Shown here piece after piece: positions 23,566 through 63,881 of a stretch of 64,000 nucleotides of DNA (position 1 is its first letter; each line of letters opens with the position of its first letter). Below the pieces are notes generated by a model. That model worked only from the letters and a program-made list of their open reading frames with translations. It was not told the origin of the DNA and ran no database searches. The position numbers and the translations under genes were made by a program. The stretch is from a virus. Taxonomy: Duplodnaviria; Heunggongvirae; Uroviricota; Caudoviricetes. The stretch lies in the IMG/VR virus record IMGVR_UViG_3300032007_000003, positions 248,029 through 312,028 of that record; one strand, written 5' to 3'.

Positions 23566-23984
23566 CAAACATAATGGGCTTGAAACGGTATAGATTGGCT
23601 GTAGTTTGGTAAGAGACAAGCAGTGGGCATACACTTTCAAATAGCAAAAAAATTAAACGCAGAGAACGTAGATTCTCCTGCTTACGAGTTCGCTATTGCA
23701 GCGTAAACGTGAGCCGAGAGGCTAGGCTCTTAGGAACAGAACATCCTAGCAAATTTTTTTTTGATTAGAAGAAAGGTTCCTGGTTCGAGACCTTGGGAGC
23801 ATTGCTTTAGTTCAAAACGCTTAGGTGTGTTGTAGCTGTTGACAGCTTGGTAGAACATTCTGATAATCAAATGGTGGAATCGGTGACTCTAGTCATCCCC
23901 TAGTGTAATGGCGATACACTTTAATAAAACGTTCTGAGGAAGAAAACCTCTTACCAAAAATTGAAAAGTTTGTATAATCTCTTA

Positions 23985-24027
23985 TGGGACGCAGAACAAG
24001 ACGTGGGTTCAACTCCCACCAGGTCCA
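23985..24027 (+). ncRNA. tRNA-like minihelix
   Basis: GGGAC-GCAGAACAAGA-CGTGGGTTCAACTCCCAC-CAGGTCC. Confidence 0.25.
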
Positions 24028-24045
24028 CTAACAATTAGTTACGTT

Positions 24046-25070: not shown

Positions 25071-26164
25071 CAAATGTAACATAAATACTCAGGTGCAATC
25101 GGTAGTAAAGGTTGGCGAGGAAAGTGAGGTTGCGACAAACATACAACCGTATGAAATAAAGCGGATGTCCTTTACCATTAAATTGGTTCTGTAAAATGAA
25201 TCAGCCTTTACAATGTTACATACAATATACTTGGAAGATACCAGAGGAGAAACGGTAGTGTAACAACTAACGGTGTAGACAAATGGGCATCAAGTTCGTG
25301 CTTAGTGTGCTCTTTCGAGAGCTTCGGTGATTCAAATTCACCTCGTTCAACAACTCTCACATTGTAGGCTTCGGCTGAAAATGAGGAGTTTGGCTAGCTT
25401 TCGTAGCCAAATGAAGGATAATCCAGTGATGGGATTAAATGTGATGTGAAGTTGACCATAGTAGCATTACAGATATGTAGGGGCAACCCTATGTATTTCA
25501 CTGAAAAGCATATGGCACGGTCTACATTGGGGGTAACACCTTGGATGTAGGCTCTCAAGGGCTGAATGTCTTTGAGTGAGTGGTAACACAATAGATTGTC
25601 ATATGGAACTTGATGCAATAATCACCAGTTGGCGTGTTGGGTTCAGTTATGTGCTAGTCTTAAGTAGAAATGCTTGAGAACCGTAAGGCTGATAGTATGT
25701 AATAGCAATTGGACTTGTGGTGAGTCTTTGTAGGGAGGCGATTTCGTGGGTCGTGCTCAAAAGGCACGAATGCGATGGGTCGCACCTCGTCTTCCAATGG
25801 TCGCAGAAAAGGTTTGAAATTAATAGGGTTCAAAAGTTTACAAAGCAAAAGTGTGCGACACTAGGCAGCTAAAATGCACTTATCCTTCTGCAATATGAAG
25901 GGGTTGGGGACTCGCAAGGAATCCAACAAGAGAGTAAAAGTACTCGTCTGAGTTAGTAGGAGGCATCCTATGAATCCGCAAGAGCTTGGCGAAGAACTGA
26001 AATCTATGATGCTGTACCGAAAGGTTTAAACTAGTAAGTGTTTGGTTGTTTTCGCAAAACCTCCGTGCATGGTGTCTACGGCTATCGTAAGGTAGCGTGT
26101 GAACAACAACGTCCAACCGTTGTGAAATGGCATCAACAATAAGACAATGTTCTCAGTCTTTTTG

Positions 26165-26297
26165 TGTTTATATAGGGATATAGCTCAGTGGTAGAGTAAT
26201 TTTGTTGCGATTTAAGCTATACACAATACTAACTTCGGAACGTATTGATGCTTTAACTGATAATGAAACGGTCATTGGTTCGAATCCAGTTGTCCCT
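26165..26297 (+). tRNA. interrupted tRNA-Ile(GAT)-like (about 53-nt insertion between the D-arm and anticodon stem)
   Basis: 5' AGGGATA-TA-GCTCAGTGGTAGAGT; 3' TTTAA-CTGATAA-TGAAA-CGGTC-ATTGGTTCGAATCCAGT-TGTCCCT. The acceptor pairs across 133 nt. Confidence 0.4.
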
Positions 26298-26459
26298 GCG
26301 TACCGTGATTATGATGCTTCCACGTATGATAAGCATCTTACTTATTATAGTAGGTTAACATGCTATAGTAGATTGGAGAAGTTTTGGCTACTAATTGTGG
26401 CTAGTAAAATGAAAGTTTTCATCCAATCGTTTTTTATACGGCTTAATATTTAATTATAT

Positions 26460-27558: not shown

Positions 27559-27936
27559 ATGGGAAAGGTAGTGAATAAATTAAAATCATTAGTTAATAAC
27601 AAACAAATTAAAGAATATATTAATATGGAAAAGAAAATTTTTACAGATAAGGAGACCACTAGAGAACAGTATCTTAAGTTTAAGGAATTCATTAAGTCAG
27701 ACGCATACAAAGACCATTCTGACTATGTAGCTTACTACATTTTTAAGCATCGTATTGAGGGTGCAGACCGTGACGCATATCTTGAGGATGAGGTTAGAAA
27801 CCGTTGTTACAAGATGTTGTACAGTGGTCGTTGGGGTGTAAGCGGTGGTGACATGACCGAGAGTTATGTTATCCCAGCATTCAAGAACGCAGTAATCAAG
27901 GTGTATAACAAGTATGCAGACCCAACAGAAGAGTAA
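27559..27936 (+). CDS. hypothetical protein
   Basis: 125-aa ORF. The true start may be the internal Met at about 27622. Confidence 0.4.
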   Translation: MGKVVNKLKSLVNNKQIKEYINMEKKIFTDKETTREQYLKFKEFIKSDAYKDHSDYVAYYIFKHRIEGADRDAYLEDEVRNRCYKMLYSGRWGVSGGDMTESYVIPAFKNAVIKVYNKYADPTEE

Positions 27937-28235
27937 TGGAGAAGAGAAAATTATACATTTTGATTGACAAGTCGCTCAAACCAGTGTACGGATGCGTACA
28001 AGGTGGTCATGCAGTTGCGCAATGGATGCTAGAACATCCTCACAGTAGAGAGTGGCAAAATGATTATTTGATTTACTTAAGTGCTGATGTGCCTAAGTGG
28101 AGGAAAAGACTAAAGGGTTTTGGTGTTGAGTATACAGAGTTCAAAGAACCTGACCTCGACTTTAAAACAACTGCTTTAGCGGTTTTCGGACACGAAGAGC
28201 TATTCAAAAGGTTGAAGGTTGTTACCGAAGACTAA
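27936..28235 (+). CDS. PTH2-family peptidyl-tRNA hydrolase-like protein
   Basis: 'LYILIDKSLKPVYGCVQGGHAVAQW' and '...TALAVFGHEE' resemble the PTH2 'GKxAAQxxHA' and 'TVLAIGP' blocks. The call is tentative. Confidence 0.35.
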   Translation: MEKRKLYILIDKSLKPVYGCVQGGHAVAQWMLEHPHSREWQNDYLIYLSADVPKWRKRLKGFGVEYTEFKEPDLDFKTTALAVFGHEELFKRLKVVTED

Positions 28236-28380: not shown

Positions 28381-28456
28381 TGGGCATATGGCAGAGTGGT
28401 CGATTGCAACGGCTTCTAGGACCGTAAAAGGCGTGGGTTCGAATCCTACTATGCTC
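28381..28456 (+). tRNA. candidate amber-suppressor tRNA (anticodon CTA)
   Basis: Acceptor GGGCATA/TATGCTC. D-arm GGCAGAGTGGTCGATTGC. The anticodon stem ACGGC/ACCGT (C-A mismatch at 31-39) with loop TTCTAGG gives CTA. An alternative is a 4-bp stem with the 9-nt loop CTTCTAGGA. T-arm GTGGGTTCGAATCCTAC. Confidence 0.4.
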
Positions 28457-28840
28457 ACTACGGCTTGGCGTACCCATATTGGGTGCTGAAATAGGTTAGA
28501 CAAGCACAAGCCACGTAAGAAATGGCAGACATGCAGTAATGCGGTGCGAGGATTAGTCCCTTGCCCTAGTTCCTTGATGGTTAAGAGGATACCTTTATGG
28601 TTGGTATAGGCAAACCTATTTTATGTTATGGCAAGCGAAAATAAAAAGAAAAAAGCAAAGAATTCTTATTTAGCCAATGCTAATAAGACTACTGATAAAT
28701 TGAAGAGAATTAACTTTTACAATAAGATAAATAGAGCAGAAAATAAGTGTAAAGTTAAGGATTGTTAAAGTTGAATTAATCATTTGGTTGGTTCAACTTT
28801 TTTTCGTATCTTTACATCAGAAATTTAAAAACAAGGAAAT

Positions 28841-29857: not shown

Positions 29858-30349
29858 ATGGAAATAGAAGAATTGGCAAAGAGAGTAGCGTTTGCTCTTA
29901 TGGATAAGAACTATAAGATTGCAACTGCTGAAGAGTGTACTGCTGGACTTGTTGGCGCTGCTATTGCAAGTCAAGACTATGCTCAGAGGTGGTATAAGGG
30001 TACTATTGTTACATATGATGAAGCTAGTGCTTGTAAAGTTTTAGAAGTTCAAGACTACACCATTAAAAGGAATGACTTTGTTAGCACTCAAGTGGTGAGT
30101 CAAATGGCATTAACAACATTATATAGGTTTGATGTAAATATTGCATTGGCAATTAATGGGTATGTTGATGGATATGGAAGTACCAATGTTCCAGCTGGGG
30201 ATGTACAAATCTGTGTAGCAAAATTAGTTGGAAAATCAGTGTCTTTCAAAAATAAGAAGCTGTTAGTTAGAGGAAAGGATAGAGGGAAGAATATTGAAGA
30301 AGCAATTAAGGAGGCTCTTATCCTTATAATGGAATCAATTGTAGATTAA
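29858..30349 (+). CDS. CinA C-terminal domain protein (PncC-like NMN deamidase)
   Basis: 'IATAEECTAGLVGAAIAS ... GTIVTYDEASACKVL ... VVSQMA' matches the CinA_C pattern (AESCTGG...G.V.YS...VS..A). Confidence 0.55.
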   Translation: MEIEELAKRVAFALMDKNYKIATAEECTAGLVGAAIASQDYAQRWYKGTIVTYDEASACKVLEVQDYTIKRNDFVSTQVVSQMALTTLYRFDVNIALAINGYVDGYGSTNVPAGDVQICVAKLVGKSVSFKNKKLLVRGKDRGKNIEEAIKEALILIMESIVD

Positions 30350-30350: not shown

Positions 30351-30734
30351 ATGGAAGGTTGCGCATTTTGTGATATAGAGAAAAGAATAGATGAATCGAG
30401 AATAATATATCAAGATTCAACTTGGATTGCGATATTAGATGGGTATCCAGTTTCAGAGGGGCATACATTATTAATACCAAAGAGACATTGTGAAACATAT
30501 TTTGATTTAAATTATCTTGAACTTGAATCTCTTGGCGTAACAATTGGTATTGTTAAAAGACTATTGGATACCAAATACCATCCAAATGGATATAATGTGG
30601 GAGTTAACTGTGGTGAGGCTGCTGGTCAAACCATCATGCATTGTCATGTACATATCATACCACGTTATAATGGTGATTGCGAAAATCCTAGAGGTGGTGT
30701 CAGAGGTGTTATACCAAATAAGATGTCATATTAG
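30351..30734 (+). CDS. HIT-family nucleotide hydrolase
   Basis: The histidine triad 'HCHVHIIPR' and an upstream 'HTLLIPKRH'. Confidence 0.65.
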   Translation: MEGCAFCDIEKRIDESRIIYQDSTWIAILDGYPVSEGHTLLIPKRHCETYFDLNYLELESLGVTIGIVKRLLDTKYHPNGYNVGVNCGEAAGQTIMHCHVHIIPRYNGDCENPRGGVRGVIPNKMSY

Positions 30735-31588: not shown

Positions 31589-32422
31589 ATGAAGAAGTTT
31601 TTAACAATGTTTTCATTCGTCATTATGTTGACGATGAGTATGACAATGACATCTTGTATCGGTTGCACAACAGCAAATGCTGACGAGGAAATTGTTTTGA
31701 TTGACAAGCCTTGGTTCTTAGGTCATGGTGGTGTACAAAGTGAACCAGTTGAAACTGGTCTTGAGTGGATTTGGTGGTCTACTGACACAGAGACTTTCAA
31801 GATTGTGCCTTTTAAGCATCAAGTGGATATGGATGATTTGTTCAGTGATGACAATACTCCGTTGGATTTCCATACCATTATAATTACACAGATTCAAAAG
31901 GGTAAATCACCAATTCTATTGCAGAACTACGGTACTGATTGGTTCAATACCAACCTTTATAATTACTACTGCAATCTTGTGCGAGACCATATTTCACAGC
32001 ATAGTCCATTTGACCTTATGTCGAATCGAGCGATTCTGAATGAGATTGATGCAAAGGTGCTTAAGCAGATGCAGAGTTATGTGGCTGAGTTATCCAAGGA
32101 GAAGGAGTTTCCAGTAACGGTTCGCCAAGTAACTATTGGTAAGGCAATTCCTAACAAGGAGCAGCTTGCGGAAATGAATAAGACAGCGAAGGCAGTGCAA
32201 GCAAAGCAGACTCAAGAGCGACAAGTTGAGGTTGAGTTGGCTCGTGAGAAAGCTGAGAGACAGAGAGCAAAGGCTGATAAGGCTTATAGGGAAGAGCTTG
32301 GTCTTAGTACGCAAGACTTCATTAGTTTGAAGTGGATTGAGACTATCGCAGCTAAGAATGGCGCAAATATTGATGTGATGGTTGGTGGTGGTTCTACCCC
32401 AATGTGGAATATCAAACATTAA
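31589..32422 (+). CDS. lipoprotein with C-terminal coiled coil
   Basis: Signal/lipobox ...MTSCIGC. The C-terminal K/E/Q/R-rich coiled coil is AKAVQAKQTQERQVEVELAREKAERQRAKADKAY. Confidence 0.45.
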   Translation: MKKFLTMFSFVIMLTMSMTMTSCIGCTTANADEEIVLIDKPWFLGHGGVQSEPVETGLEWIWWSTDTETFKIVPFKHQVDMDDLFSDDNTPLDFHTIIITQIQKGKSPILLQNYGTDWFNTNLYNYYCNLVRDHISQHSPFDLMSNRAILNEIDAKVLKQMQSYVAELSKEKEFPVTVRQVTIGKAIPNKEQLAEMNKTAKAVQAKQTQERQVEVELAREKAERQRAKADKAYREELGLSTQDFISLKWIETIAAKNGANIDVMVGGGSTPMWNIKH

Positions 32423-32631
32423 TAATACAAGGATGGGCGAGTTTTCCTTTTTTAACAAGACATTAGGGTGAAGTGTCTTTAAAAAACTCGTAAGATTGGC
32501 TTGTCTTAAGGAGCTGAGTGGGTTGTCGGAATTCGACTCTGTGGGGTGAACTAAACCGTCTCGTTAGCTGAGTACAGCCGTTGCCTTTGGGGAAGTGAGC
32601 AACATACTAGTTAAAATCATTTCCCCATTTT

Positions 32632-32718
32632 TATATCTCCTTCGTCTATCGGTTAGGACACCTAGGGGTAACTCACGTGGTAAGAGAGGTTCGATTCCTC
32701 TAGGAGATTCTATAGCAG
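32632..32718 (+). tRNA. tRNA-like (perfect acceptor and T-arm, interior unresolved)
   Basis: Acceptor ATCTCCT/AGGAGAT. T-arm AGAGGTTCGATTCCTCT. It is 87 nt long. Confidence 0.3.
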
Positions 32719-32992: not shown

Positions 32993-33129
32993 GTGCGGTT
33001 CGTCTAGTGGTTCAGGACAACGTTTAAAAAAGTTTTTTAACGTTTCCGTTAGGAAATAGACAGCAGATGTATTATTGAAAAATTATGCATTCCAAGCCGT
33101 AAACAGAGGTTCGAATCCTCTACCGCACT
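32993..33129 (+). tRNA. interrupted tRNA (Glu-like D-arm; about 70-nt insertion with ...CGTTTCC-GTTA-GGAAATAGACAGCAG...)
   Basis: 5' GTGCGGT-TC-GTCTAGTGGTTCAGGAC; 3' AGAGGTTCGAATCCTCT-ACCGCAC. The acceptor pairs perfectly. The insertion holds a hairpin and the motif pair. Confidence 0.4.
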
Positions 33130-33151
33130 CTAATCATTTATTTTATTAATA

Positions 33152-39087: not shown

Positions 39088-39199
39088 AGGGAGATAGTGT
39101 AACGGTAACACGCTGTAGTTTCCGTTACCTTTGAGGTAACATTACAGCAGTCGTTAGGAAAATAGCTTGTGGTGCCAGTATTGGAGGTTCGAATCCTTC
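39088..39199 (+). tRNA. interrupted tRNA (insertion carrying TTTCCGTTACC-TTTGA-GGTAACATTACAGCAG)
   Basis: 5' AGGGAGA-TA-GTGTAACGGTAACAC; 3' GGAGGTTCGAATCCTTC-TCTCCCT. The acceptor is perfect. GCTGT...ACAGC flank the inserted hairpin. Confidence 0.35.
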
Positions 39200-39212
39200 T
39201 CTCCCTACAAAA

Positions 39213-39305
39213 TGGCGAGGTGGCAGAGTGGTCTATCGCACTTCTCTCATAAGGAAGCGGGTTTAAACTATACCCACCGTTGGTTCAAATCCAACCCTCG
39301 CTACC
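39213..39305 (+). tRNA. type-II-bodied tRNA with anticodon CAT and encoded CCA
   Basis: Acceptor GGCGAGG/CCTCGCT. The D-arm GGCAGAGTGGTCTATCGCA is shared with the CTA tRNA at 28381. Anticodon stem CTTCT/GGAAG with loop CTCATAA. Long variable arm. T-arm GTTGGTTCAAATCCAAC. It ends A-CCA. Confidence 0.45.
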
Positions 39306-39307
39306 AA

Positions 39308-41018: not shown

Positions 41019-41573
41019 ATGGATAAGAAATTGGTTAACCAACCTTGTTATGACAAAGAAGGAAACCTTATTGGGTGGTTTAGCCGTTCAATGGCATCTG
41101 CAATCTTCATCTATTGTAGAGACAAAGATGGCGATTGGTGTGTTCTTGCGTCAGAACGAGGTGAAGAAGCTGCTGATTTTAGAGGCTTTTGGAATTGCAC
41201 ATGTGGTTATTTAGATTTTAATGAAACAACCAAAGATTGTGCAATGAGAGAACTTTATGAGGAAACTGGACTTCTTATAGATGAAGGGTTAGTTAAACTA
41301 GTAGGTTATGAGGACAGCCCAGAAGCTAACAGACAGAATGTCACATTCCGTTTTGCAGCTTTCATTGAGGATGCTATTACAGATGAATTTACATTCTCTA
41401 GGAAGAATAACGAAGGAAAAGAAGTTGGAGAGATTAAGTGGATTAAAATGTCAGATGTTGATAAATACATGTGGGCATTTAACCATGATAAGCGTATTAA
41501 GGAAATCTTTGAAACTAGAGAGGTGAAACCCACATTGGTTGATAAGTTAAAGCGTTGGATTAGAAACAAGTAA
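41019..41573 (+). CDS. Nudix hydrolase
   Basis: The Nudix box 'GGYLDFNETTKDCAMRELYEETGL' fits GX5EX7REUXEEXGU. Confidence 0.65.
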   Translation: MDKKLVNQPCYDKEGNLIGWFSRSMASAIFIYCRDKDGDWCVLASERGEEAADFRGFWNCTCGYLDFNETTKDCAMRELYEETGLLIDEGLVKLVGYEDSPEANRQNVTFRFAAFIEDAITDEFTFSRKNNEGKEVGEIKWIKMSDVDKYMWAFNHDKRIKEIFETREVKPTLVDKLKRWIRNK

Positions 41574-54742: not shown

Positions 54743-55123
54743 ATGGAAAAATTGTCAGAATATGGTGAACAGTATAGGAGAATCCTAACATACTTCCTTA
54801 AAAAGAATGGAATATACAAGATTTTTGTAGCTAATACCAAATATCAACACAGTGTAATTGACAAGCACAGCGTGTTTTTCAAAAGGCAATATTACAATGG
54901 TATATTCAATCAAGCTGCATGGGACAATAATGGTCTTGTAAATCTTTTCGGTAACTTCTTTGCTTTCACGAGTACTAAATATCCAGAAACAATAAGACTA
55001 TTTGATGGTACTTTCGTAGATTCAAACATATTCTCTAGATATGAATTTTGGGTTATGAAACGTAGTCAATGGGAAGATTTCATATATAAAAGAGAATACG
55101 AAGAAATAACAACATTAAAATAA
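54743..55123 (+). CDS. hypothetical protein
   Basis: 126-aa ORF after a terminator/promoter module. Confidence 0.4.
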   Translation: MEKLSEYGEQYRRILTYFLKKNGIYKIFVANTKYQHSVIDKHSVFFKRQYYNGIFNQAAWDNNGLVNLFGNFFAFTSTKYPETIRLFDGTFVDSNIFSRYEFWVMKRSQWEDFIYKREYEEITTLK

Positions 55124-56074
55124 ATGGAATTAATACTTAAACAATTAAGGGGACGATTCATAGAAGACAATCAACTGCCCATTACAACAGTTGAAGACCC
55201 CTATTTCGATGAAAGAATTAAGATGCTTGAGGGTGAATGCGGTGCTAAAACCAAATATCTATCTCTTATGGAAGTAATTAGAGATAGATTTGATGGCAAC
55301 ATGCAGAAATTCCTTGAGCATAGACATAGCGTTAAAGACCAAATTTTAGCCCATATTCTTAATTCTGATGGTTATAAAGCAATGTTGGCTGATAAATCCC
55401 CATTGGAGGATTATAAGCCCATTGTAGGCTCAAATGAACTATATACGGAACAGCAAGATGGCGGTTTGTTTATATCATTCGATATGATTAAGGCAAACTT
55501 CCAAGCCTTACGTTATGTTGACCCAAGCATTGTATGTGATTGTAATACTTGGGAAGAATTCGTGGCTCGTTTTAGTGATGTAGAATACCTCGCTTCTGCA
55601 AAACAAGTAAGACAAGAGGTATTGGGCAAACTCAATGGTAAGAGATTGGCAGCAATTGAAAAAAGGGCTTCAAATGATTTTGGAAAAGAGTTCAAATATA
55701 GATTAAGTATATATGGTTTCTCATTGTTCTCAATCAAAACTGATGAAATAATCTTCAAGTTTGAAGGTACTGAGAAGGAATTTGAGTCATTCCACGCTGG
55801 AGACCAAGAGTATAATGGTTTCAAGTTCCGTGTGAACAAATTCAAACTCAACATGAGAACCTTCAAGAGAGCATTCTCAGATAAGCGCATAAATATCTTT
55901 GAGAAGGAAGACTTCTTAGATGGTCATAGACGCAATTTAAAGTGCGTTCCTGCCACTTATTACCCTCAAGTGTATAAACTACTCAATGGGATAAAAATAA
56001 ACGATTCTGACCTAGTTTTTACTAGTGACCATGAATTATGTTCTTATATGAAACCATTGGAGTTAGTAAAATGA
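55124..56074 (+). CDS. hypothetical protein
   Basis: 316-aa ORF. Confidence 0.45.
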   Translation: MELILKQLRGRFIEDNQLPITTVEDPYFDERIKMLEGECGAKTKYLSLMEVIRDRFDGNMQKFLEHRHSVKDQILAHILNSDGYKAMLADKSPLEDYKPIVGSNELYTEQQDGGLFISFDMIKANFQALRYVDPSIVCDCNTWEEFVARFSDVEYLASAKQVRQEVLGKLNGKRLAAIEKRASNDFGKEFKYRLSIYGFSLFSIKTDEIIFKFEGTEKEFESFHAGDQEYNGFKFRVNKFKLNMRTFKRAFSDKRINIFEKEDFLDGHRRNLKCVPATYYPQVYKLLNGIKINDSDLVFTSDHELCSYMKPLELVK

Positions 56075-56302
56075 CGAAGGAATTAGGAATAAGTAAGGAC
56101 TTTGCGTACTACCTCAAAGAGAAAGGTTTGTATTCAAACTATATCGCCAAGCTTAAAAAATATGGCTATAAAAAGGCTGCGGTCATCTATTTTGGCGCAT
56201 GGAATGATAACGAACAAAAAGAGTTTTGGAAGGGAGTATATATTGGTTTTTTCGAATACTTGAAAAAGAAATATCCATGTGAAATAATAACATATAATTA
56301 GA

Positions 56303-57697
56303 ATGGAATTATTCAAAGAAGATAAACATAAAAAGCTTTTAAAGAAGTTACAAGATTGCATTAAGGGCACTGCATTTGAAAATAACGTCTATCTTGTAGG
56401 TGGTTGTGTGAGAGACGCTTTGCTAAATGAACCCATTAAGGATTTTGATATTGTGGTATCAATAAAAAATGGTGGCATTATGCTTGCTAACCTATTGGCT
56501 GCAAAGGAAAAGTGCTATAAATTGGGTAGCAATCCAGTGGTATATCCCAAATACGGTACTGCAAAGGTTACTCTGTATAATGATGAAGACCTTAAGGACT
56601 TGGACATTGAGTTTGTTCAGACTCGTAAGGAGCAATATCATGAGGATAGTAGAAATCCAGAACAAGTATTTGGTACAGTTGAAGAGGATGCAAAACGCAG
56701 AGATTTAACCATCAATTCATTGTATTATAATATAAGTGATGAAAAGATATATGATTTTAACTTAGGTATTGATGACTTGGTTAATCAAGTTATTAAAACA
56801 CCGACTGACCCAGATATCACATTCAATGATGACCCATTACGTATATTGAGGGTTATCAGATTCTCTTGTCGTTATGGATGGGGTATTGAAAAGAATACTT
56901 GGTTAGGTATGGTTAAGAATGCTCATCGTATTAAAATTATCTCACAAGAGAGAATCACTGATGAAATTTCAAAGATTATAACTAGTCCAAACCCTTCAGT
57001 TGGTATAAGGAAAATGTTGTTCTGTGGTCTTCTGAATAAGGTGATGCCAGACATATATGACTTAACCAATGCATATGAATCAAGGAATCCAATGCTAACG
57101 TCATTTGACCATACCATGATGGTTCTTGATAAGGTACAGCCTTATATTGAGACTAGATTGGCTGCGTTATTCCATGATGTTGGTAGAATCGCAAGTGAAG
57201 CCAATAGAGGAATCTCACAAGATTTGTTTAGTGCTGATGTGGCTGTTTGTGACTTGAAACTCATGAAGTTCCCAAATGCAATAGCAGATTCTGTTGAGAA
57301 TTCAATTAAGTATCATAGATTCTTTAGAAACTATGCTGATGGTACTGTTCCACCAGATAAGAAGATAAGAAAGTTCATCAACTTATGTGGTGACAACATT
57401 GGGAACGTTGTTGACTTGATGAATGCCAACAACTTGTGTCAAACTTATGACAAGAAAAAGAGACAAGCATTGGACATTCTGAATAGGATTGAAGAACTTG
57501 ATGAGCTTGAAGAGGCTAAGAATGTTAAACTACCCATCGATGGAAAAGATATCATGAAGGAGTTTAATCTTAAGTCTGGACCTCATATTGGTAAACTTAT
57601 GGATTGTTTGAAGGAAGCTTACTTTGATAATCCTAAAATTACTAAAGAAGAGTGCTTTAAGTTGATAGAGGAAAAGATAAAGGTCTTGGCGGTATGA
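56303..57697 (+). CDS. cca: CCA-adding tRNA nucleotidyltransferase with HD domain
   Basis: 'VYLVGGCVRDALLNEPIKDFDIVV' is the class-II nucleotidyltransferase head. An 'LFHDVGR' HD motif is present. Confidence 0.75.
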   Translation: MELFKEDKHKKLLKKLQDCIKGTAFENNVYLVGGCVRDALLNEPIKDFDIVVSIKNGGIMLANLLAAKEKCYKLGSNPVVYPKYGTAKVTLYNDEDLKDLDIEFVQTRKEQYHEDSRNPEQVFGTVEEDAKRRDLTINSLYYNISDEKIYDFNLGIDDLVNQVIKTPTDPDITFNDDPLRILRVIRFSCRYGWGIEKNTWLGMVKNAHRIKIISQERITDEISKIITSPNPSVGIRKMLFCGLLNKVMPDIYDLTNAYESRNPMLTSFDHTMMVLDKVQPYIETRLAALFHDVGRIASEANRGISQDLFSADVAVCDLKLMKFPNAIADSVENSIKYHRFFRNYADGTVPPDKKIRKFINLCGDNIGNVVDLMNANNLCQTYDKKKRQALDILNRIEELDELEEAKNVKLPIDGKDIMKEFNLKSGPHIGKLMDCLKEAYFDNPKITKEECFKLIEEKIKVLAV

Positions 57698-57859
57698 CAA
57701 CTGCCAAGTCTTTTTTCTTTAATATATTTCTTTTTTAAGTATATAATATTATTATATATTAATTAAAATATATTATAATATATTAAAAAATAATAAATAT
57801 CTCAATAATATTTTTTATTTAGGAAAATTTTTCGTATATTTGCAAAAAGTATAAACAAC

Positions 57860-58090
57860 ATGGGAACATTATGTAAGAATTGTCCCGTAAGGGATATACG
57901 TAAGAAAACTGGAGAACCTTGTACCATTGCTTTTGCAACTAGGTACGGAAATAGTTGTGTTAACCTCGACATAACAGAACAATTGTTCAATAAAGAGTTA
58001 GAGGAATTCTCCAAGAAGAAAAAGACTGAAGCCAAAAAGGTTAATAAACCTAAGACAACAAAGAAAAAAGAAACTATTAAAACAGAATAA
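57860..58090 (+). CDS. Cys-rich small protein with basic K-rich tail
   Basis: CKNCPV ... CTIAF ... C, then a KKKKTEAKKVNKPKTTKKK tail. Confidence 0.35.
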   Translation: MGTLCKNCPVRDIRKKTGEPCTIAFATRYGNSCVNLDITEQLFNKELEEFSKKKKTEAKKVNKPKTTKKKETIKTE

Positions 58091-58093
58091 AAT

Positions 58094-58669
58094 ATGGGAA
58101 GAAAAATTTTAATTATCGTTGATGGTCAATACAGCTTTATTGAGGGTGGCTCTTTAGCAGTAGAGGGGGGCAGAAAAGCATTAGATAATCTTGTAGAGTT
58201 CATAAAGAACCATTATAAAGAATATGATGGTATATTCTTAACTGCCGATTGGCATCCAATTACCCACTGTTCTTTCAAAGATAACGGTGGTATCTGGCCT
58301 CCTCACTGTGTACAGTTCTCACAAGGTGCAGCGATATATCAACCAATTCTTGATGTATTAGATGAATTAAGGATTGATTATGATGTTCTCACCAAGGGTT
58401 GTGATGAAGACCATGAAGAGTATTCAATCTTCAAGAATGTTACTTCTGAGGCATACCTTAAGGCAATGAATAAACACAATGAGATTGGGGTTGTTGACAT
58501 TGCTGGAATTGCTGGTGATTATTGTGTCCTTGATACAATAAAGGATGGACTCATGGAATTTCCAAATACTGAGTTCCATGTTATCAATGAGTGTGTTGCA
58601 TCCATTGATGGTGGAGCAACTTTAAGTAAATTCGTTGATGAAAACGAGAGAGTATTATGGCACGAATAG
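58094..58669 (+). CDS. pncA: nicotinamidase / isochorismatase-family hydrolase (PncA-like)
   Basis: 'ILIIVDGQYSF', 'TADWHPITHCSF' and 'WPPHCVQFSQGAAI' match PncA signature blocks. Confidence 0.7.
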   Translation: MGRKILIIVDGQYSFIEGGSLAVEGGRKALDNLVEFIKNHYKEYDGIFLTADWHPITHCSFKDNGGIWPPHCVQFSQGAAIYQPILDVLDELRIDYDVLTKGCDEDHEEYSIFKNVTSEAYLKAMNKHNEIGVVDIAGIAGDYCVLDTIKDGLMEFPNTEFHVINECVASIDGGATLSKFVDENERVLWHE

Positions 58670-58878
58670 AAGTTGATTTAGCGGAATATCAAGGCATGAG
58701 AAACAAGATTAAGAGCTTGGAATCTGCCTTGAATTCTGTATCTGTTGAGGCTGCTACCAATAAGGAGATTATCGAAAATATCAAAGCTTTGGTAGTTGAC
58801 CTTGAGAAAGAAGGATTTTTAAATCGTTTATTTGCTTGGAAAAATGTCATTAAACCATTTAAAGAATTATTAACATAA

Positions 58879-58916
58879 AATTTTTGGTAGATTTGATATT
58901 TTTTCGTATCTTTGCA
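58879..58916 (+). promoter_or_regulatory. conserved promoter copy
   Basis: TTTTTGGTAGATTTGATATTTTTTCGTATCTTTGCA. Confidence 0.45.
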
Positions 58917-59392
58917 TGGAGAAATTAACATTAGATGTATTTAAGCATTTTAGGTTCTTCTTGAAAAAGAACAAGATATATGACCTATTTATGCGGAATT
59001 TCAGAAGCCAACCATATGAGAAGATTCATAATGTAGATGCATTCTTACCTAATTACATAAACATAATGAGAGAGTATTCTACAACACGTATGGGTAAAGA
59101 ATATCTCAGTGTATATGGAGCGATGTATCTAACGTTTAGGTCTTTTTGTTGGGCGAATAGAGCAGCATATAAGACACCAAATTCATGGAGCAAGTATTGG
59201 GCTACTATTTGTTTAAAATGGGCACTATATTGCATTAGGCATAATATTGAGATATGCACAGACGAAGACCTTGGCAGACTTATAGAATATTGGGATTCAT
59301 GCAAGTGGATTGACATAAGCAAATTATCATTTCAAGATAGAATAGTTATACAACAATTAAAGTGTAAACACAATAATGGAGACATATACTAA
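58916..59392 (+). CDS. hypothetical protein
   Basis: 158-aa ORF. Confidence 0.4.
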   Translation: MEKLTLDVFKHFRFFLKKNKIYDLFMRNFRSQPYEKIHNVDAFLPNYINIMREYSTTRMGKEYLSVYGAMYLTFRSFCWANRAAYKTPNSWSKYWATICLKWALYCIRHNIEICTDEDLGRLIEYWDSCKWIDISKLSFQDRIVIQQLKCKHNNGDIY

Positions 59393-60323
59393 AATAGATA
59401 CAATGCTAAAAAGATATATCTTTGATGGCAAGGAGTGTCCGAATAAGGATTGGTTGAAGTTCAAGAATAAGATTATCCTTGGCGAGTTCTCATTTAATGA
59501 GGCTGAGTATTTGTTCAATTGTCTTTGGGAAGCCACAAGTAAAATAGACGGTACAAATTCCAAGATTGCTTTCTTTCCTTCAGATGGACACATCGAAGTA
59601 GGTGGCAAGACCGACAAAGCTAGTTCACAGCATGGACAGTTTGAAATGCTCCAAGAGATTGGTGAGCGTATCAAGCCACAACTCTGCGCTATGTTCCCCA
59701 AGGAGTCAGCACGTTTTGTTCCAGTTAAGGGAAATGACAATAAGGTACAGTATTATGACGTACATGCTGATTTTAACGAGTATGACGAAAAGACTATGAT
59801 TGCTAAGTTGCAAGCCAAGTTCGATAAGAAGGATACTGTTATATCAGAAGGCTTATATGGTGTGGAACTTGAGGAAGTTCCTATCTACATCTACGGTGAG
59901 TATTTCGGTACTGGTATTCAGAAGTGTGGTTCTCGTTACATTCAGAATGGTAACGGCTTCCGTGTATTCGACATCAAGCAGCAAGGTTGGTGGTTGCCAA
60001 AGGAAAATCGTGATGCAATGTGCAAAGGTCTTGGTCTTGAGCAAGTACCATTCTTGGGCGTTATGACCTTGCGTGACATTGAGGATATGGTTCGTAGTGG
60101 TTTCACCACAAAGTTTGAGGGGGCTGCTGACCCAACCATGATTGAAGAGGGTATTGTAGCACGTCCTATCATTCCTCTTTGTAGTGGTAATGGTAATCGT
60201 ATTATCGTTAAGGTAAAGTATTGCGATTACATTGAGTATGACACTGTTCGCAAACAGTTCTCTGATGAAGAGTTTGCTGAGTTCGATAAGTGGTATCATG
60301 AGAATATTGAAAATAAGAAATAG
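59376..60323 (+). CDS. ATP-dependent RNA ligase (Rnl2-like nucleotidyltransferase)
   Basis: Motif I 'SKIDGTN' (KxDG without the Arg typical of DNA ligases). Motif IV-like 'EGIVARP'. Motif V 'VKVKY'. Confidence 0.5.
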   Translation: METYTKIDTMLKRYIFDGKECPNKDWLKFKNKIILGEFSFNEAEYLFNCLWEATSKIDGTNSKIAFFPSDGHIEVGGKTDKASSQHGQFEMLQEIGERIKPQLCAMFPKESARFVPVKGNDNKVQYYDVHADFNEYDEKTMIAKLQAKFDKKDTVISEGLYGVELEEVPIYIYGEYFGTGIQKCGSRYIQNGNGFRVFDIKQQGWWLPKENRDAMCKGLGLEQVPFLGVMTLRDIEDMVRSGFTTKFEGAADPTMIEEGIVARPIIPLCSGNGNRIIVKVKYCDYIEYDTVRKQFSDEEFAEFDKWYHENIENKK

Positions 60324-60595
60324 TATATGAGAGATTTAACAAGGGTACTATTAAGGTCACTCATGTTTATTTTCCTACTTGTTGGATGTGGTGGTAACAT
60401 CTACTATATGTCTAGCATAACTAGTGATAACCAGTATGCTAGATATAATAGTAGAAGAACCCATTCAACTGTTACGTATGATGAAAATGGATATAATGAG
60501 TACCAACAGCCTCAGTCAGACACAATCAGTATTAATTCAGATGATGACGAGAGAGAATATTTAGATTCAAGACCTACTAGGCAATTTTACTACTG

Positions 60596-61033
60596 ATGAT
60601 ATATGTCGTTTGTAAATTAGGCAATGGGGAAACATTACACACAAATTCCAAATATGGCATTGGAGATTATGTGGAGATAGTTGATGGTGGTCATCAATAT
60701 AGTGGTTATACTGCTGCCTATCAATATTTTTGGGGCGGTGTTGAACGTTATTATATCAATTACAATTTTGATAATGGAGAACCACATAAGGAAGTTCCTA
60801 AATATTGGAAGATTATCAATATGGCACTTGACCCTTCAGGAAGAACCATCTTATACCACATAAGAAGTGTTGATGGGAAAAATAGTGTGGTCGATGAAGG
60901 CGCTATTAAGTTATCTAATTTTCATAGTAGAAACAGAATACCGATTGGTGACGTTAAGATTAATCAACTGCCTTTCAATGGTAATGTTATGCCACATAAA
61001 TGGACAGATAAACTATATAAGGTTCTAACATGA
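60596..61033 (+). CDS. hypothetical protein
   Basis: 145-aa ORF. Confidence 0.4.
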   Translation: MIYVVCKLGNGETLHTNSKYGIGDYVEIVDGGHQYSGYTAAYQYFWGGVERYYINYNFDNGEPHKEVPKYWKIINMALDPSGRTILYHIRSVDGKNSVVDEGAIKLSNFHSRNRIPIGDVKINQLPFNGNVMPHKWTDKLYKVLT

Positions 61034-61455
61034 AACTCATAATTGAAAATTTTGGAACAGTTGAAGTACCTATCAAGATAGGCTATATCGTCACAATTAA
61101 AAAAGGTAGATATGGTTCAGCATTCTATTGGGATTACGTTCAGACATTACCTAAACTGTTAAAGGTTTGTCCATATCAATATGGCGAAGGAATGTACTCA
61201 TTCTATGTTGATGAGCATGGTAATAGAAAAGCGCATGTTCCAAAGGAATGGAAAATTAAACATATTTTTTTCAATGGTGGTAGTATTCATCATCTTTCTC
61301 TTATTGTGGTGTTGGTAAGTAGGTTTAAGGACACATTATCCGTATCCTATATGATGAATCACTCAAACGGTGTATGGGAAGAATATAATTCACCTTTCGA
61401 AGTAATTAACAGAGATAGGAAAGGATTGGAAGAAATTAAAGTGGAAAGGGTTTAA
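61030..61455 (+). CDS. hypothetical protein
   Basis: 141-aa ORF. Possible distant paralog of 61472-61855, with similar W/Y-rich blocks. Confidence 0.4.
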   Translation: MKLIIENFGTVEVPIKIGYIVTIKKGRYGSAFYWDYVQTLPKLLKVCPYQYGEGMYSFYVDEHGNRKAHVPKEWKIKHIFFNGGSIHHLSLIVVLVSRFKDTLSVSYMMNHSNGVWEEYNSPFEVINRDRKGLEEIKVERV

Positions 61456-61471
61456 AATAATAAAAAAAAAC

Positions 61472-61855
61472 ATGCTTGCTAATGTTTTTACATTTCATTG
61501 TATAAAAGACTTTGGTATTGTCTGGAATTACCAATTTCGTGTTGGTGATATTGTAACTGTTAAAAACTGGGGAAATAGATACACATATTACCCATCAGCA
61601 CACAATTATTTTAAAAGAAAACTTGGTATTCCTTATTATAATTCTGATGAATATTACAGTTGGAAACCAAATGACCTCTTCAAAATTAGAGCGATTGCTA
61701 GGCATCATAGGATGGAAAATAGGCTTCTTGCACTTATTGAAGATAGAAATAAAAGAGGAGTAATAATCAACATGGATGGTTTGAGTTTAGCCAAACAATA
61801 CCCATTAAGAAAGGACGAGAAATTAAATAAAAACATTGAAATAATAAAATATTAA
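61472..61855 (+). CDS. hypothetical protein
   Basis: 127-aa ORF. Confidence 0.4.
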   Translation: MLANVFTFHCIKDFGIVWNYQFRVGDIVTVKNWGNRYTYYPSAHNYFKRKLGIPYYNSDEYYSWKPNDLFKIRAIARHHRMENRLLALIEDRNKRGVIINMDGLSLAKQYPLRKDEKLNKNIEIIKY

Positions 61856-61859
61856 AAAA

Positions 61860-63104
61860 ATGGGAAAAATTAAGCAAATTGTTACGCATTTTACTGACAA
61901 TGACCTCTACACTTTTACGTGCCAGTATTACATTTTACACACGTATCCACGTGCAGAGGTGAGGTATGCATTCTTTGACCGTAATCACACTCGTTATCCG
62001 AAAGGATTTGGCGAGTTGCTTCAAGAGCAGATTAACGGCATGAAGGATGTTATTATCACAGAGGAAGAGATTGCCTTTATGAAAAGAAAAATTTACTTCC
62101 TTCCAGATTGGTATTACAATTTCCTTCGTGGATTCAGATTCAATCCCTCTGAGGTGCATATTTCACAAGACCAAAGTGGCTACTTATCAATCGTTATTGA
62201 GGGTAAATGGTATTCCACTATTATGTGGGAAATGCCAATTCTTTCTACAATATCTGAATTGATGCATGTCATCAATGGTGATATTGAGAAAGTGGATTGG
62301 GAAGCAGAATGGAACAGAGCATACGATAAGTGTTTTAAATGCCTTGAAAATGGTATTAGGGTTTCAGACATGGGCACTAGGAGAAGGTTTTGTTTCTATA
62401 ATCAACAAGTGGTTCTTGAGGCTTTTAAGCAAGCAAGACATGACATTGATTTGAAATCAGTTGCAAACGTTAGGACTGGAGATTTCATAGGTACATCAAA
62501 TGTTTGGTTTGCCAAGGGATTTGACCTTACACCTATTGGAACAATGTCCCATCAGTTATGTTCATTTGAAGAGTGTGTAAGTGGTGTGTTCGAGTGTAAC
62601 CATCAGTTAATGAAAAAGTGGTCAGACGTGTATTCTGGAGACCTTGGTATTTTCCTTCCAGATTGTTTTGGAAGTAAGGTATTCCTTTCCAATTTCTCTA
62701 AGGACATGGCTAAGATGTTCGATGGTATCCGAATTGACAGTGGTGATGAAAGGGAGGAAACCGAAAAGATGATTGAGAAATATCGTTCTCTTGGTATTGA
62801 CCCATCTACAAAGTCAATTGTTTATTCAAATGCCCTTACCATCGATAAAGCCATAGAACTTCATGAGTGGCTTGACGGACGTATGAAAGATTCATATGGT
62901 ATTGGTACGCACCTCATGGCTGATGTGACTAACACAGAAACCAAAGAAAAGTTCCCATACTCAAATATTGTTATCAAGCTTGTTGGTATGAGAATAACAG
63001 AGTCTCGTGAATGGCATGATTGTATTAAGCTGTCAAACGACAAGGGTAAAACATTGGGTGATAAGACTAAGTGTGAATATCTAGTGAAACAAATAGGGGA
63101 ATAA
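61860..63104 (+). CDS. pncB: nicotinate phosphoribosyltransferase
   Basis: N-terminal 'FTDNDLYTFTCQYYIL' corresponds to the NAPRTase 'TDxYKxTM' block. 414 aa. Confidence 0.7.
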   Translation: MGKIKQIVTHFTDNDLYTFTCQYYILHTYPRAEVRYAFFDRNHTRYPKGFGELLQEQINGMKDVIITEEEIAFMKRKIYFLPDWYYNFLRGFRFNPSEVHISQDQSGYLSIVIEGKWYSTIMWEMPILSTISELMHVINGDIEKVDWEAEWNRAYDKCFKCLENGIRVSDMGTRRRFCFYNQQVVLEAFKQARHDIDLKSVANVRTGDFIGTSNVWFAKGFDLTPIGTMSHQLCSFEECVSGVFECNHQLMKKWSDVYSGDLGIFLPDCFGSKVFLSNFSKDMAKMFDGIRIDSGDEREETEKMIEKYRSLGIDPSTKSIVYSNALTIDKAIELHEWLDGRMKDSYGIGTHLMADVTNTETKEKFPYSNIVIKLVGMRITESREWHDCIKLSNDKGKTLGDKTKCEYLVKQIGE

Positions 63105-63122
63105 CTCTCCCCTATTTTTTTT
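63092..63122 (+). terminator. rho-independent terminator
   Basis: ATAGGGGA...TCCCCTAT stem followed by TTTTTTTT. Confidence 0.55.
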
Positions 63123-63169: not shown

Positions 63170-63553
63170 ATGTTTTTTTCATATCTTTGCAATATGGTAT
63201 TGGAGAAAGACAAAGTTTATAAGATAAAACATGAAAGCCAAGAACATCACCATGTCTATGCTTGGAGGACTTATATAATATGTTCTCCAATGAGAAGCAT
63301 TGACATTGATAATTTAGAGTGTATTAATCTCTCAAAAATAGAAAGATATACTCAGTTTGACTGCCATTTCGTAGTATGCTTTGATGGCGAGATTAGGACT
63401 AATAGAGAAGGTAAAGATAGTCAAACTGCTTTCTTCGAAAGTTGTGAGGTTATGCCCTTGGAGGAAGAAGACCTTAACGATGTGAGAAAGGCAGTAACTA
63501 TGATGGGAGCAAAATATAACAGAAAATTAAATAAATTAATACTAAATGCTTAA
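63170..63553 (+). CDS. hypothetical protein, tandem paralog 1 of 3
   Basis: Shares a 'YI(I/M)(C/F)SP' block and a C-terminal 'KYNRKLNKLIL' with the next two ORFs. Confidence 0.4.
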   Translation: MFFSYLCNMVLEKDKVYKIKHESQEHHHVYAWRTYIICSPMRSIDIDNLECINLSKIERYTQFDCHFVVCFDGEIRTNREGKDSQTAFFESCEVMPLEEEDLNDVRKAVTMMGAKYNRKLNKLILNA

Positions 63554-63881
63554 ACGAGAACATATATATAAAGCAATATATAGTAGTGTTGGAAGAAGTT
63601 GTTTGAGAAACTATATTATTTTTTCTCCAAAACGTGATATTGAGAATATACTTCTTTTTAATAAAAGTATGGTAAATTCTTTTAATATATTTCAGATAAA
63701 TTTAGCTGGCGATATTTCTCGTGGCATGTGTATCGGCTTTGGTAATTTAGTTAAACTTACCAAATCATTTACTGAACAAGATTTATGCGAAATAGAAAGG
63801 GCAATGAAGAAGTATGGTTGGAAATACGATAGAAAATTAAATAAGATAATATTAGATGTTGAAACGAGGACACGTATATAA
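63546..63881 (+). CDS. hypothetical protein, tandem paralog 2 of 3
   Basis: 'RNYIIFSPKRD' ... 'KYDRKLNKIILD'. Confidence 0.4.
   Translation: MLKREHIYKAIYSSVGRSCLRNYIIFSPKRDIENILLFNKSMVNSFNIFQINLAGDISRGMCIGFGNLVKLTKSFTEQDLCEIERAMKKYGWKYDRKLNKIILDVETRTRI

Follow-up and report, generated by a model that had tools for sequence, protein, structure and literature searches.

The window, by which we mean the whole stretch of 64,000 nucleotides analysed here, comes from a phage genome of about 412 kb, the host being probably one of the Bacteroidota; the Lak megaphages are its distant relatives. Along with a tRNA island, it encodes an enzyme of CCA-adding type and an RNA ligase reduced to its core, a combination already known from giant phages. 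The sequence-only reading had placed both genes next to the tRNA island; they lie 17 kb past the last tRNA. The features are the following.

1091-39306, + strand: tRNA island, 42-47 predicted genes (ARAGORN, Rfam)
22578-23138, + strand: NMN/NaMN adenylyltransferase-like (NMNAT-like) protein (PF01467, 2e-7)
27936-28235, + strand: 99-aa ORF, earlier read as PTH2-like (PHROG 3668 'hydrolase', 3.4e-6, its sole match)
29858-30349, + strand: PncC/CinA NMN deamidase (PF02464, 3e-28), directly 5' of the HIT gene
30351-30734, + strand: HIT protein of the Hint/Fhit branch, 127 aa (PF01230, 1.1e-20; HCHVH at residue 97)
41019-41573, + strand: Nudix hydrolase (PF00293, 3.1e-12)
55124-56074, + strand: clade-specific 316-aa protein, polymerase palm-like fold, sharing a unit with the CCA gene
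56303-57697, + strand: class II tRNA nucleotidyltransferase, CCA-adding type, C-terminal HD domain, 464 aa
57685-57708, + strand: terminator-like hairpin with T-run (consensus scan), overlapping the CCA gene stop
58094-58669, + strand: PncA-like nicotinamidase, isochorismatase fold (PF00857, 1.1e-8), in the terminator-bounded block of the ligase
59376-60323, + strand: nucleotidyltransferase-only, Rnl2-like ATP-type RNA ligase, 315 aa
61860-63104, + strand: PncB, nicotinate phosphoribosyltransferase (NAPRTase; PF04095, 8.5e-43; PF17767, 1.6e-31)
63091-63117, + strand: terminator-like hairpin (consensus scan), after PncB

The 464-aa protein matched Pfam families PolyA_pol (PF01743, 4.7e-27, 95.3 bits for a cut-off of 23) and PolyA_pol_RNAbd (PF12627, 1.6e-15), as well as PHROG 2244 'tRNA nucleotidyltransferase' (6.6e-64), and its PDB matches were CCA enzymes (best 7.8e-36). 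TIGR02692 aligned with it over the full length (3.3e-66); equivalog cut-offs were missed, with 223.9 bits against 438.8 for this model and 143 against 290 for NF009814. Among NCBIfam models, those for CCA addition outscored the pcnB and A-adding ones. The pol-beta head carries motif A (GGCVRD, residues 33-38, and DFD, 47-49), motif B (RRD, 132-134) and a motif D of the [ED]DxxR type (DDPLR, 176-180), which is kept in seven clade members. In class II CCA enzymes, motif D is the amino-acid template that selects CTP and ATP. The Pfam HD score is weak (18.6 bits, cut-off 22), and the H...HD...H...D residues are found in FDHT (268-271), FHDVG (290-294), KYHRF (336-340) and DLMNANN (371-377), the metal-binding positions H270, H291-D292, H338 and D371 being kept in relatives down to 48% identity. 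As had been read before, the protein is by its sequence a class II nucleotidyltransferase of the CCA-adding type with an intact HD phosphohydrolase motif, its specificity being a predicted one, given that sequence cannot reliably separate CCA-, CC- and A-adding enzymes and poly(A) polymerases. It shares the class II head, neck and body and the HD motif with the multifunctional E. coli Cca type, but its identity to the homologs seen in phages and cells is no higher than 30-35%, and its best full-length model is of the actinobacterial type, below the cut-off of that model.

ARAGORN called 42 tRNA genes, or 47 with its intron option, and Rfam 39; the set is thus large, as described earlier, without reaching the count of about 48 given then. 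In 35 of the 36 well-scored phage genes, C74 is templated but C75-A76 is not (P about 1e-28), so the earlier observation that almost all lack CCA was correct. One of its two exceptions, at 39303-39305, was recovered, the tRNA-Met gene at 39214-39306 ending in ACCA; the other, at 22414-22417, was lost, as it follows an orphan T-arm-like hairpin where no tool calls a complete tRNA. Of the 39 Bacteroidota tRNA genes sampled, 33 showed the C74-without-C75 pattern as well, and the phage genes match them in ending at N73-C74, while in the other phyla sampled CCA was templated in 145 of 216. Leaving the CCA untemplated apart from C74 is the normal Bacteroidota convention. This means that the host must already own a CCA-adding enzyme, and that the phage tRNAs have no specific need for a phage copy. 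A dependence of their maturation on the phage enzyme is therefore not supported.

The 315-aa protein matched the RNA ligase family PF09414 (2.2e-15) and, over no more than profile positions 30-241 of 341, PHROG 548 (3.7e-19). It has the full series of catalytic motifs (I, III, IIIa, IV and V), motif I being KIDGTN at residues 56-61 with K56 as the predicted adenylylation site, and K56, G59, N61, G174, E175, D199, E258, G259, R275, K279 and K281 are invariant across 49 homologs. With the AF2 model (pLDDT 92.6), the best folds in Foldseek were T4 Rnl2 (6e-10), then NgrRnl; E was about 1e-9 against 2hvr and 1s68, and the TM score 0.61 against the Rnl2 N-domain (1s68). Rnl3, REL1 and Trl1 came next, and DNA ligases far lower (E 2e-3 or worse). 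In the model, motif V is followed by some 30 residues forming two short helices, most homologs terminating directly after it, so the all-helical C-terminal domain of about 90 aa that is the signature of Rnl2 is absent, and TIGR02307 scored 17 bits for a cut-off of 197.15. A clade-specific insertion of about 60-70 residues separates motif I from motif III; the typical family member is shorter, at 205-245 aa. What the gene encodes is the nucleotidyltransferase domain of an ATP-type RNA ligase, without Rnl2 C-terminal or OB domain. The Rnl2-like assignment thus stood as regards RNA type, KxDGxN motif and best folds (Rnl2, NgrRnl), and failed as regards domain composition and the TIGR02307 cut-off.

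With T4 Rnl2, its best structural match, the phage ligase has in common the nucleotidyltransferase fold and motifs I (KxxGTN), III, IIIa, IV (EGxVxxP) and V (KxK), but not the defining C-terminal domain. The T4 Rnl2 N-domain alone is defective in RNA adenylylation, and a nucleotidyltransferase-only ligase may need a partner or act differently. All families of ATP-dependent RNA ligases characterised so far depend on a flanking domain (PMC7261155). The Naegleria and Deinococcus Rnl5 nick-sealing ligases, second-best structural match, have the same motif set, but Rnl5 carries an N-terminal OB module (PMC7261155), and only about 50 residues precede motif I here.

A DNA ligase, the outcome that the sequence-only reading had set against its own call, was rejected: motif I is KIDGTN rather than KxDGxR, no OB domain is found in the model, and DNA ligases align far less well than Rnl2. 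An RNA-type enzyme could still serve DNA replication or repair, sealing RNA-DNA junctions or DNA nicks rather than tRNA. Rnl2 and Rnl5 enzymes do work on nicked duplexes (PMC7261155), and the neighbours of the homolog in cr116_1, a crAss-like phage, are genes for DNA polymerase I, dUTPase and ribonucleotide reductase. With the motif and fold evidence against it, and no replication gene identified by Pfam or PHROG in the ligase block (57860-63104), we regard this role as rather unlikely.

What that block contains instead are NAD+ salvage genes, which had been missed. The ligase is placed between the nicotinamidase and the NAPRTase, terminator-like hairpins bound the block, and its other ORFs gave no significant family match (Pfam, PHROG). 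Judged from sequence, the hairpin at 57685-57708 would divide the CCA unit from a PncA-ligase-PncB unit, and the ligase appears to be co-transcribed with NAD genes, not tRNA genes. Over the region, a putative Preiss-Handler set, with PncC in addition, can be assembled, in which PncB (TIGR01514, 324 bits, cut-off 269.55) and PncC (TIGR00199, 74.4 bits, cut-off 68.9) are above curated cut-offs, the PncA-like (NF008623 nicotinamidase, 4e-20) and NMNAT-like (NF002243, 2e-16) proteins are below, and NadE, just upstream of the window, comes from a precomputed Pfam match on a gene cut by the locus end. NADAR is encoded just downstream of the window.

The order CCA-PncA-ligase-PncB was kept in 11 of 11 IMG/VR relatives, down to 60% ligase identity and even where PncB identity drops to 31%, although all 11 belong to one lineage, which makes this synteny weak evidence. 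It could be that the ligase is tied to the NAD+ module, with NAD+ as adenylate donor or in an NAD+-dependent RNA-repair route, as its position, the neighbouring NADAR and the conserved order would suggest; a proposal of RNA repair linked to NAD+ has been made for giant phages (PMC7824862). However, the protein has no NMN-binding Ia domain, no Tpt1/KptA, Macro or 2H protein lies nearby, and in Lak phages about 150 kb separate the ligase homolog from the CCA gene, with neither NAD genes nor any other homolog of the window within 12 kb of the former. We consider such a tie very unlikely.

The HIT hydrolase was confirmed as such by its Pfam match and HCHVH motif. It had also been cast as the de-adenylase partner of the ligase, a role that did not hold up. 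The protein consists of the HIT domain only, where an aprataxin type would also carry its specific zinc finger, its 42 PDB matches were Hint, Ap4A phosphorylase and Fhit only, with no aprataxin among them, and its gene lies 29 kb from the ligase, directly following that of the PncC/CinA NMN deamidase. An aprataxin-type 5'-deadenylase was thus rejected despite the HCHVH motif, and membership of the HIT protein in an RNA-repair set is not supported. The peptidyl-tRNA hydrolase proposed at 27936-28235 fared no better: no Pfam (PF01981), NCBIfam or PDB sequence match was obtained for this ORF, and BLASTP with one archaeal Pth2 sequence gave no alignment.

The contig also encodes a second RNA ligase, RtcB, 4.3-5.7 kb upstream of the window, which had likewise been overlooked. 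It was found on locus L034 (4222-5580; PF01139, 194.8 bits, 4e-57, profile positions 13-425 of 426), which overlaps the window with 100% identity over 10,546 bases; a relative of about 94% identity carries RtcB as well. With RtcB on the same contig, cyclic-phosphate breaks would need no kinase. A kinase/phosphatase was searched for by motif scan, by Pfam and, with three Pnkp queries, by six-frame tblastn. These gave no Pnkp, HAD or 2H protein in 80 kb of the ~412-kb genome (9.9 kb upstream to 6.3 kb downstream of the window), no Walker A kinase or HAD motif was seen in the ORFs of the window, tblastn of the T4, EGole and Lak Pnkp against the window and both flanks gave a best E of 2.4, and none of the best 120 Pnkp profile matches fell on a contig of about 412 kb. 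The 316-aa palm-fold protein is neither a kinase nor a phosphatase.

These results bear on the kit put forward in the sequence-only reading, in which an Rnl2-like ligase and a HIT 'de-adenylase' reverse damage by PrrC-type anticodon nucleases, the kinase/phosphatase being elsewhere. The ligase is of RNA type, and Lak megaphages have, at a distance from the ligase gene, one for a complete Pnkp with both P-loop and HAD motifs, so that a Pnkp could exist in the remaining 330 kb. Against this, the HIT protein is Hint/Fhit-like and adjoins PncC, no Pnkp was found, and RtcB would make it unnecessary. Moreover, Rnl2-type enzymes prefer duplex nicks, Rnl1 being the anticodon-loop specialist, and it is the T4 pair of Pnkp and Rnl1, rather than a ligase and a HIT protein, that classically counters anticodon nucleases. 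The sequence does not show a "ligase plus HIT" repair kit, and reversal of PrrC-type damage by such a set is unlikely. The likeness to the T4 pair is that of a phage answer to tRNA cleavage near tRNA genes, but neither Rnl1-type ligase nor Pnkp was found in the region examined. In Streptomyces phage EGole, a 366-aa RNA ligase and Pnkp adjoin the tRNAs.

In six tRNA-like genes the acceptor, D and T arms are intact, but the anticodon arm is interrupted by 26-74 nt, less than a group I intron would take up, and RtcB or the minimal ligase might join the exons of such genes. RtcB is the tRNA-splicing ligase of archaea and animals, and Rfam supports two of the six. On the other hand, none of the scanned ORFs matched a splicing-endonuclease family, the anticodon stems are predicted to pair poorly, only 2 of 5 folds tested were more stable than shuffles, and the genes could instead make tRNA-like RNAs that do not decode and keep the insertions as stable expansions of the arm. 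Exon joining is thus quite unlikely. The same holds for a wider scheme taken jointly, that of a self-contained tRNA line in which the six interrupted tRNA-likes are protein-spliced and rejoined by RtcB or the minimal ligase, the latter is a seventh RNA ligase architecture, without flanking domain, and the 316-aa protein, as a nucleotidyltransferase of a new kind, repairs ends together with the CCA enzyme; this we hold to be doubtful at best.

We lean, by a small degree, towards an accessory island of about 75 kb that holds the CCA enzyme and ligase genes and serves translation, RNA repair and NAD+ supply. The CCA enzyme would add C75-A76 to about 45 phage tRNAs and rebuild damaged 3' ends, supplementing the host enzyme, and, like that of E. 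coli CCA, its HD domain may remove 2',3'-cyclic phosphates or 3'-phosphates from RNA ends. The minimal ligase would form a K56-AMP adduct and seal 3'-OH/5'-PO4 RNA breaks, for instance those made by metal-dependent nucleases, and RtcB would take the 2',3'-cyclic-phosphate/5'-OH breaks of anticodon nucleases, without kinase/phosphatase. NAD+ salvage and RNA repair would be co-located because both counter host abortive-infection effectors. Points against this island are the ligase without flanking domain, its apparent co-transcription with NAD genes, and the different contexts in Lak and crAss-like phages.

Giant phages often unite RtcB, Rnl-type ligases, CCA-adding enzymes and NAD+ synthesis, and some divergent ligases that fall outside Rnl1 and Rnl2 are on record from actinophages (PMC7824862). 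With the RNA-repair/NAD+ conflict systems described there (Iyer et al. 2021), the present phage shares RtcB, an ATP-type ligase, a CCA enzyme, many tRNAs, NAD+ synthesis, NADAR and Nudix. It differs in that no PNK-HAD, 2H, cRec or RlaP was found in the 80 kb, and in that its predicted NAD route is Preiss-Handler (PncA, PncB, NMNAT-like, NadE, plus PncC), where NAPRTase and NMNAT are described in that work (PMC7824862). The phage is thus a further case of a known giant-phage type, and its minimal ligase is an uncharacterised one.

The sequence-only reading had seen in this region a phage set for tRNA maturation and repair. In spirit this holds, and for the genes of the CCA-adding enzyme and of the RNA ligase the reading was largely correct. 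The composition of the set has to be revised: a HIT hydrolase and a presumed peptidyl-tRNA hydrolase drop out, no polynucleotide kinase/phosphatase (Pnkp) is evident, and an RtcB ligase had been missed. The ligase gene stands among genes of NAD+ salvage.

The window has a G+C content of 35.5%, and nearly all its plausible genes lie on the + strand. No near-identical DNA was found in the phage collection, and megablast of 54-64 kb gave no match. The exact ligase protein is present on the 412,231-bp ENA contig ERZ27256887:k141_847008, whose loci are 100% identical to the window over 14,625 and 10,546 bases. Relatives are contigs and IMG/VR genomes of 405-425 kb, partly from rumen samples; the closest named phages, the Prevotella Lak megaphages and crAss-like phages, show just 30-35% protein identity.

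ORF 56303-57697, read as a CCA-adding enzyme with an HD domain, matches the head and RNA-binding domains in Pfam and the PHROG 'tRNA nucleotidyltransferase' profile (6.6e-64), and aligns over its full length with the actinobacterial CCA model (3.3e-66), with a score below the equivalog cut-off. Its best PDB matches are solved CCA enzymes, and it has motif A (GGCVRD, DFD), motif B (RRD) and the nucleotide-selecting motif D (DDPLR). By profiles and motifs, it is a class II tRNA nucleotidyltransferase. Although the Pfam HD match is sub-threshold, the H...HD...H...D residues are kept across the clade, down to 48% identity, so that the HD domain is likely active. Homologs were found in 478 phage records, and the enzyme is therefore an ordinary trait of large phages.

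Maturation of the phage tRNAs had been thought to depend on this activity, as almost none of roughly 48 tRNAs seemed to encode CCA. The count was too high, with 42 tRNAs predicted by ARAGORN (47 when introns are allowed) and 39 by Rfam. The near-absence of CCA was confirmed: only tRNA-Met 39214-39306 templates it, at 39303-39305. The other supposed exception, at 22414-22417, comes after an orphan hairpin resembling a T-arm (T-arm, acceptor strand and ACCA, ~22385-22417, +) and not a recognisable tRNA. A poor ARAGORN 'tRNA-Leu(AAG)' at 32316-32411, inside the 3' end of an SPFH/Band 7 protein gene (31589-32422, +; PF01145, 3e-14), is probably a false call, since Rfam gives it no support. Among 36 well-scored tRNA genes, 35 template C74 and one templates C75 (P ~1e-28 at 14.3% C), and the window tmRNA gene likewise templates C74, not C75-A76. 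That C74-only genes are an oddity of this phage was rejected, as the sampled Bacteroidota genomes share the pattern: the ending N73-C74-non-C was found in 33 of 39 tRNA genes from 14 sampled Bacteroidota loci, and templated CCA in 145 of 216 genes from the other phyla sampled. Bacteroidetes are known to template CCA seldom (PMC5143459). The phage tRNAs thus follow the convention of the host, which must possess an essential CCA-adding enzyme of its own. C74 without CCA is easily misread as a sign of reliance on the phage enzyme; it is a convention of the host phylum. The phage enzyme is most plausibly a supplement, serving the large extra tRNA load and 3'-end repair.

The tRNA 3'-end convention and an excess of the Bacteroidota -7 box TAnnTTTG (109 observed, 85.8 ± 8 expected) both point to Bacteroidota as the host phylum. 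A scan for sigma-70 promoters found them at the expected frequency (47 observed, 47.1 expected).

The product of ORF 59376-60323, read as an Rnl2-like RNA ligase, is a PF09414 match (2.2e-15) in which residues 56-61 read KIDGTN. Among 1.84 billion cluster representatives searched, its relatives form ~1,900 clusters at 50% identity, mostly of 205-245 aa; Streptomyces phages occur among the homologs. Across 49 aligned sequences, the residues that never vary coincide exactly with the nucleotidyltransferase motifs, namely K56, G59 and N61 (I), G174 and E175 (III), D199 (IIIa), E258 and G259 (IV), and R275, K279 and K281 (V); an N-terminal Y-x-K-I...K-R segment is also conserved. As phmmer against PDB sequences reached no better than E 0.15, structures had to be compared. 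The AlphaFold model has high confidence (pLDDT 92.6), and its top solved matches are T4 Rnl2 (isolated N-domain 1s68, TM 0.61) and Naegleria Rnl5, followed by Rnl3, REL1 and fungal Trl1. DNA ligases were much weaker matches, and the alternative of a DNA ligase with KxDGxR motif and OB domain does not apply.

The enzyme is nevertheless not a bona fide Rnl2: it lacks the C-terminal domain of T4 Rnl2, scores 17 bits with TIGR02307 against a cut-off of 197, and aligns with PHROG 548 over the nucleotidyltransferase part of the profile only. In all six ATP-dependent RNA ligase families that have been characterised, a nucleotidyltransferase domain is joined to a flanking domain distinctive of the family (PMC7261155), whereas the minimal family has no flanking domain. 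In the literature searched, nothing specific on the biochemistry of the PF09414 minimal family was found. A very common ligase family having the nucleotidyltransferase domain alone is of practical interest.

Features around the CCA and ligase genes, and dispersed NAD+-related and RtcB genes (L034 and L001 are loci of the ENA contig on the upstream and downstream sides of the window)
54743-57697: suggested unit with a small ORF, polymerase-like protein, 87-aa ORF and CCA enzyme
57685-57708: terminator-like hairpin, overlapping the CCA-gene stop
57860-63104: suggested unit with a PncA-like nicotinamidase, small ORFs, the ligase, three paralogous small ORFs and PncB
63091-63117: terminator-like hairpin, after PncB
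22578-23138: NMNAT-like protein
29858-30349: PncC
41019-41573: Nudix protein
L034 1-746: NAD synthetase (NadE), same contig, upstream of the window
L034 4222-5580: full-length RtcB RNA ligase, ~4.3-5.7 kb upstream of window base 1 (PF01139, 4e-57)
L001 15163-15669: NADAR domain protein, ~0.5-1 kb past the window end, downstream of PncB (PF08719, 7.5e-47)

The two hairpins suggest that 54743-57697 and 57860-63104 are separate transcription units. The order CCA-PncA-ligase-PncB was found in 11 of 11 IMG/VR relatives, all of one lineage, down to 60% identity for the ligase, 48% for the CCA enzyme and 31% for PncB, and the NADAR gene is also present in a relative with a 77%-identical ligase. With the upstream NadE, the NAD+ genes apparently make up a dispersed but complete Preiss-Handler salvage route. 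In Lak-A2, by contrast, no window homolog lies within 12 kb of the ligase, and the linkage to CCA and NAD genes is not seen; in a crAss-like phage the ligase homolog stands among replication genes. Since these contexts differ, the linkage is clade-specific, and any functional meaning of it is inferred.

Several smaller ORFs accompany these genes. Retained in no more than the three closest relatives, a 158-aa ORF that overlaps the start of the ligase gene was rejected as a candidate obligate partner. Small ORFs at 54743-55123, 56038-56301 and 58916-59392 (+) share an N-terminal F..FLKKNxIY..F motif (weak similarity, BLASTP E 7e-4), and each immediately precedes an enzyme gene or overlaps with it (the polymerase-like ORF, CCA enzyme and ligase, respectively). 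Tandem small paralogous ORFs, called by eye from translations, occupy 60596-61855 (145, 141 and 127 aa) and 63170-63881 (127 and 111 aa) on the + strand; they gave no database match, and their copy number differs among relatives.

Ligase and HIT protein had been proposed as a kit against PrrC-like anticodon nucleases. ORF 30351-30734 does encode a HIT protein, but its 42 PDB matches are Hint, Fhit and Ap4A-phosphorylase, aprataxin being absent among them, and the gene lies directly 3' of the PncC/CinA NMN deamidase gene, 29 kb from the ligase; this speaks against a part in the kit. For ORF 27936-28235, the PTH2 identity was abandoned: Pfam, NCBIfam, PDB sequences and BLASTP against an archaeal Pth2 sequence gave no support, and the sole match is a PHROG labelled 'hydrolase' (3.4e-6).

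A Pnkp partner was not found by a Walker A plus HAD motif scan of 87 ORFs, by Pfam scans of ~80 ORFs, or by six-frame tblastn of the window and both flanks (~80 kb) with T4, Streptomyces-phage and Lak Pnkp as queries. The 316-aa ORF 55124-56074 was rejected as the missing enzyme, as it has a polymerase palm-like fold; this compact protein, in a terminator-bounded unit with the CCA enzyme, is a second one of practical interest. None of the best 120 hits of a Pnkp profile search fell on a contig of ~412 kb. P0485, the strongest candidate, comes from another rumen phage, and IMG/VR contigs with its relatives did not overlap those with the ligase. Lak-C1 has a full Pnkp gene at a distance of 76 kb from that of its ligase, which makes a Pnkp elsewhere in the present genome possible. 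In the other rumen phage (contig ERZ27280517:k141_2519387, locus L008), 6202-10969 encodes a DUF2828/DUF7788 protein, a WYL protein, a metallophosphatase and Pnkp, adjoining thymidine kinase and family B DNA polymerase; the cluster resembles an independent RNA-repair module, carried by another large phage.

The 10 kb upstream of the window on the same contig encode NadE, a radical-SAM protein, full-length RtcB, SSB and TelA; RtcB is also present in a ~94%-identical relative. RtcB joins 2',3'-cyclic-phosphate or 3'-phosphate ends directly to 5'-OH ends, and could for this reason mend breaks made by metal-independent anticodon nucleases without Pnkp. RtcB and the minimal ligase lie on opposite flanks of the tRNA island, which is therefore flanked by two chemically distinct ligases. 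Such a non-redundant arrangement is already known from giant phages (PMC7824862).

Six tRNA-like genes of the island (3292-3414, 17628-17755, 26174-26299, 32558-32710, 32993-33130 and 39088-39208, +) have intact acceptor, D and T arms, and anticodon-arm insertions of 26-74 nt, too short for group I introns; Rfam backs two of the six as tRNA. Five ORFs between tRNA genes (3466-4509, 6405-7091, 9074-9688, 12538-13137 and 16574-17491, +), four HNH-type and one GIY-YIG-type, resemble homing endonucleases, with weak Pfam matches.

Other features of the tRNA island
10438, 15205 and 17761: tRNAs with A34 anticodons (ACG, AGA, AGT); A34 is normally deaminated to inosine
19294-19986 (+): endonuclease V-like protein (PF04493, 5e-7)
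22440-22549 (+): weak match to YrlA (Y RNA-like), 29.5 bits where the gathering score is 69, coming after the orphan T-arm and ACCA; T-arm before D-arm, a permuted tRNA-like order
23576-24030 (+): tmRNA gene of the phage, 56.9 bits in Rfam, exceeding a gathering score of 47; directly 3' of tRNA-Ile 23491-23566
25733-26159 (+): full-length sub-threshold GOLLD RNA match, 79 bits, E 8e-19, gathering score 150; directly upstream of the interrupted tRNA-like gene at 26174
28382-28458 (+): tRNA with anticodon CUA (amber suppressor type; ARAGORN label Pyl); TAG is the rarest stop in 88 chosen ORFs (8 TAG, 18 TGA, 62 TAA)

This phage lineage shows a compact giant-phage strategy, with its own tRNAs, a 3'-end enzyme, two chemically different RNA ligases and apparently full NAD+ salvage. 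Such an endowment would weaken host defences based on tRNA cleavage or NAD+ destruction.
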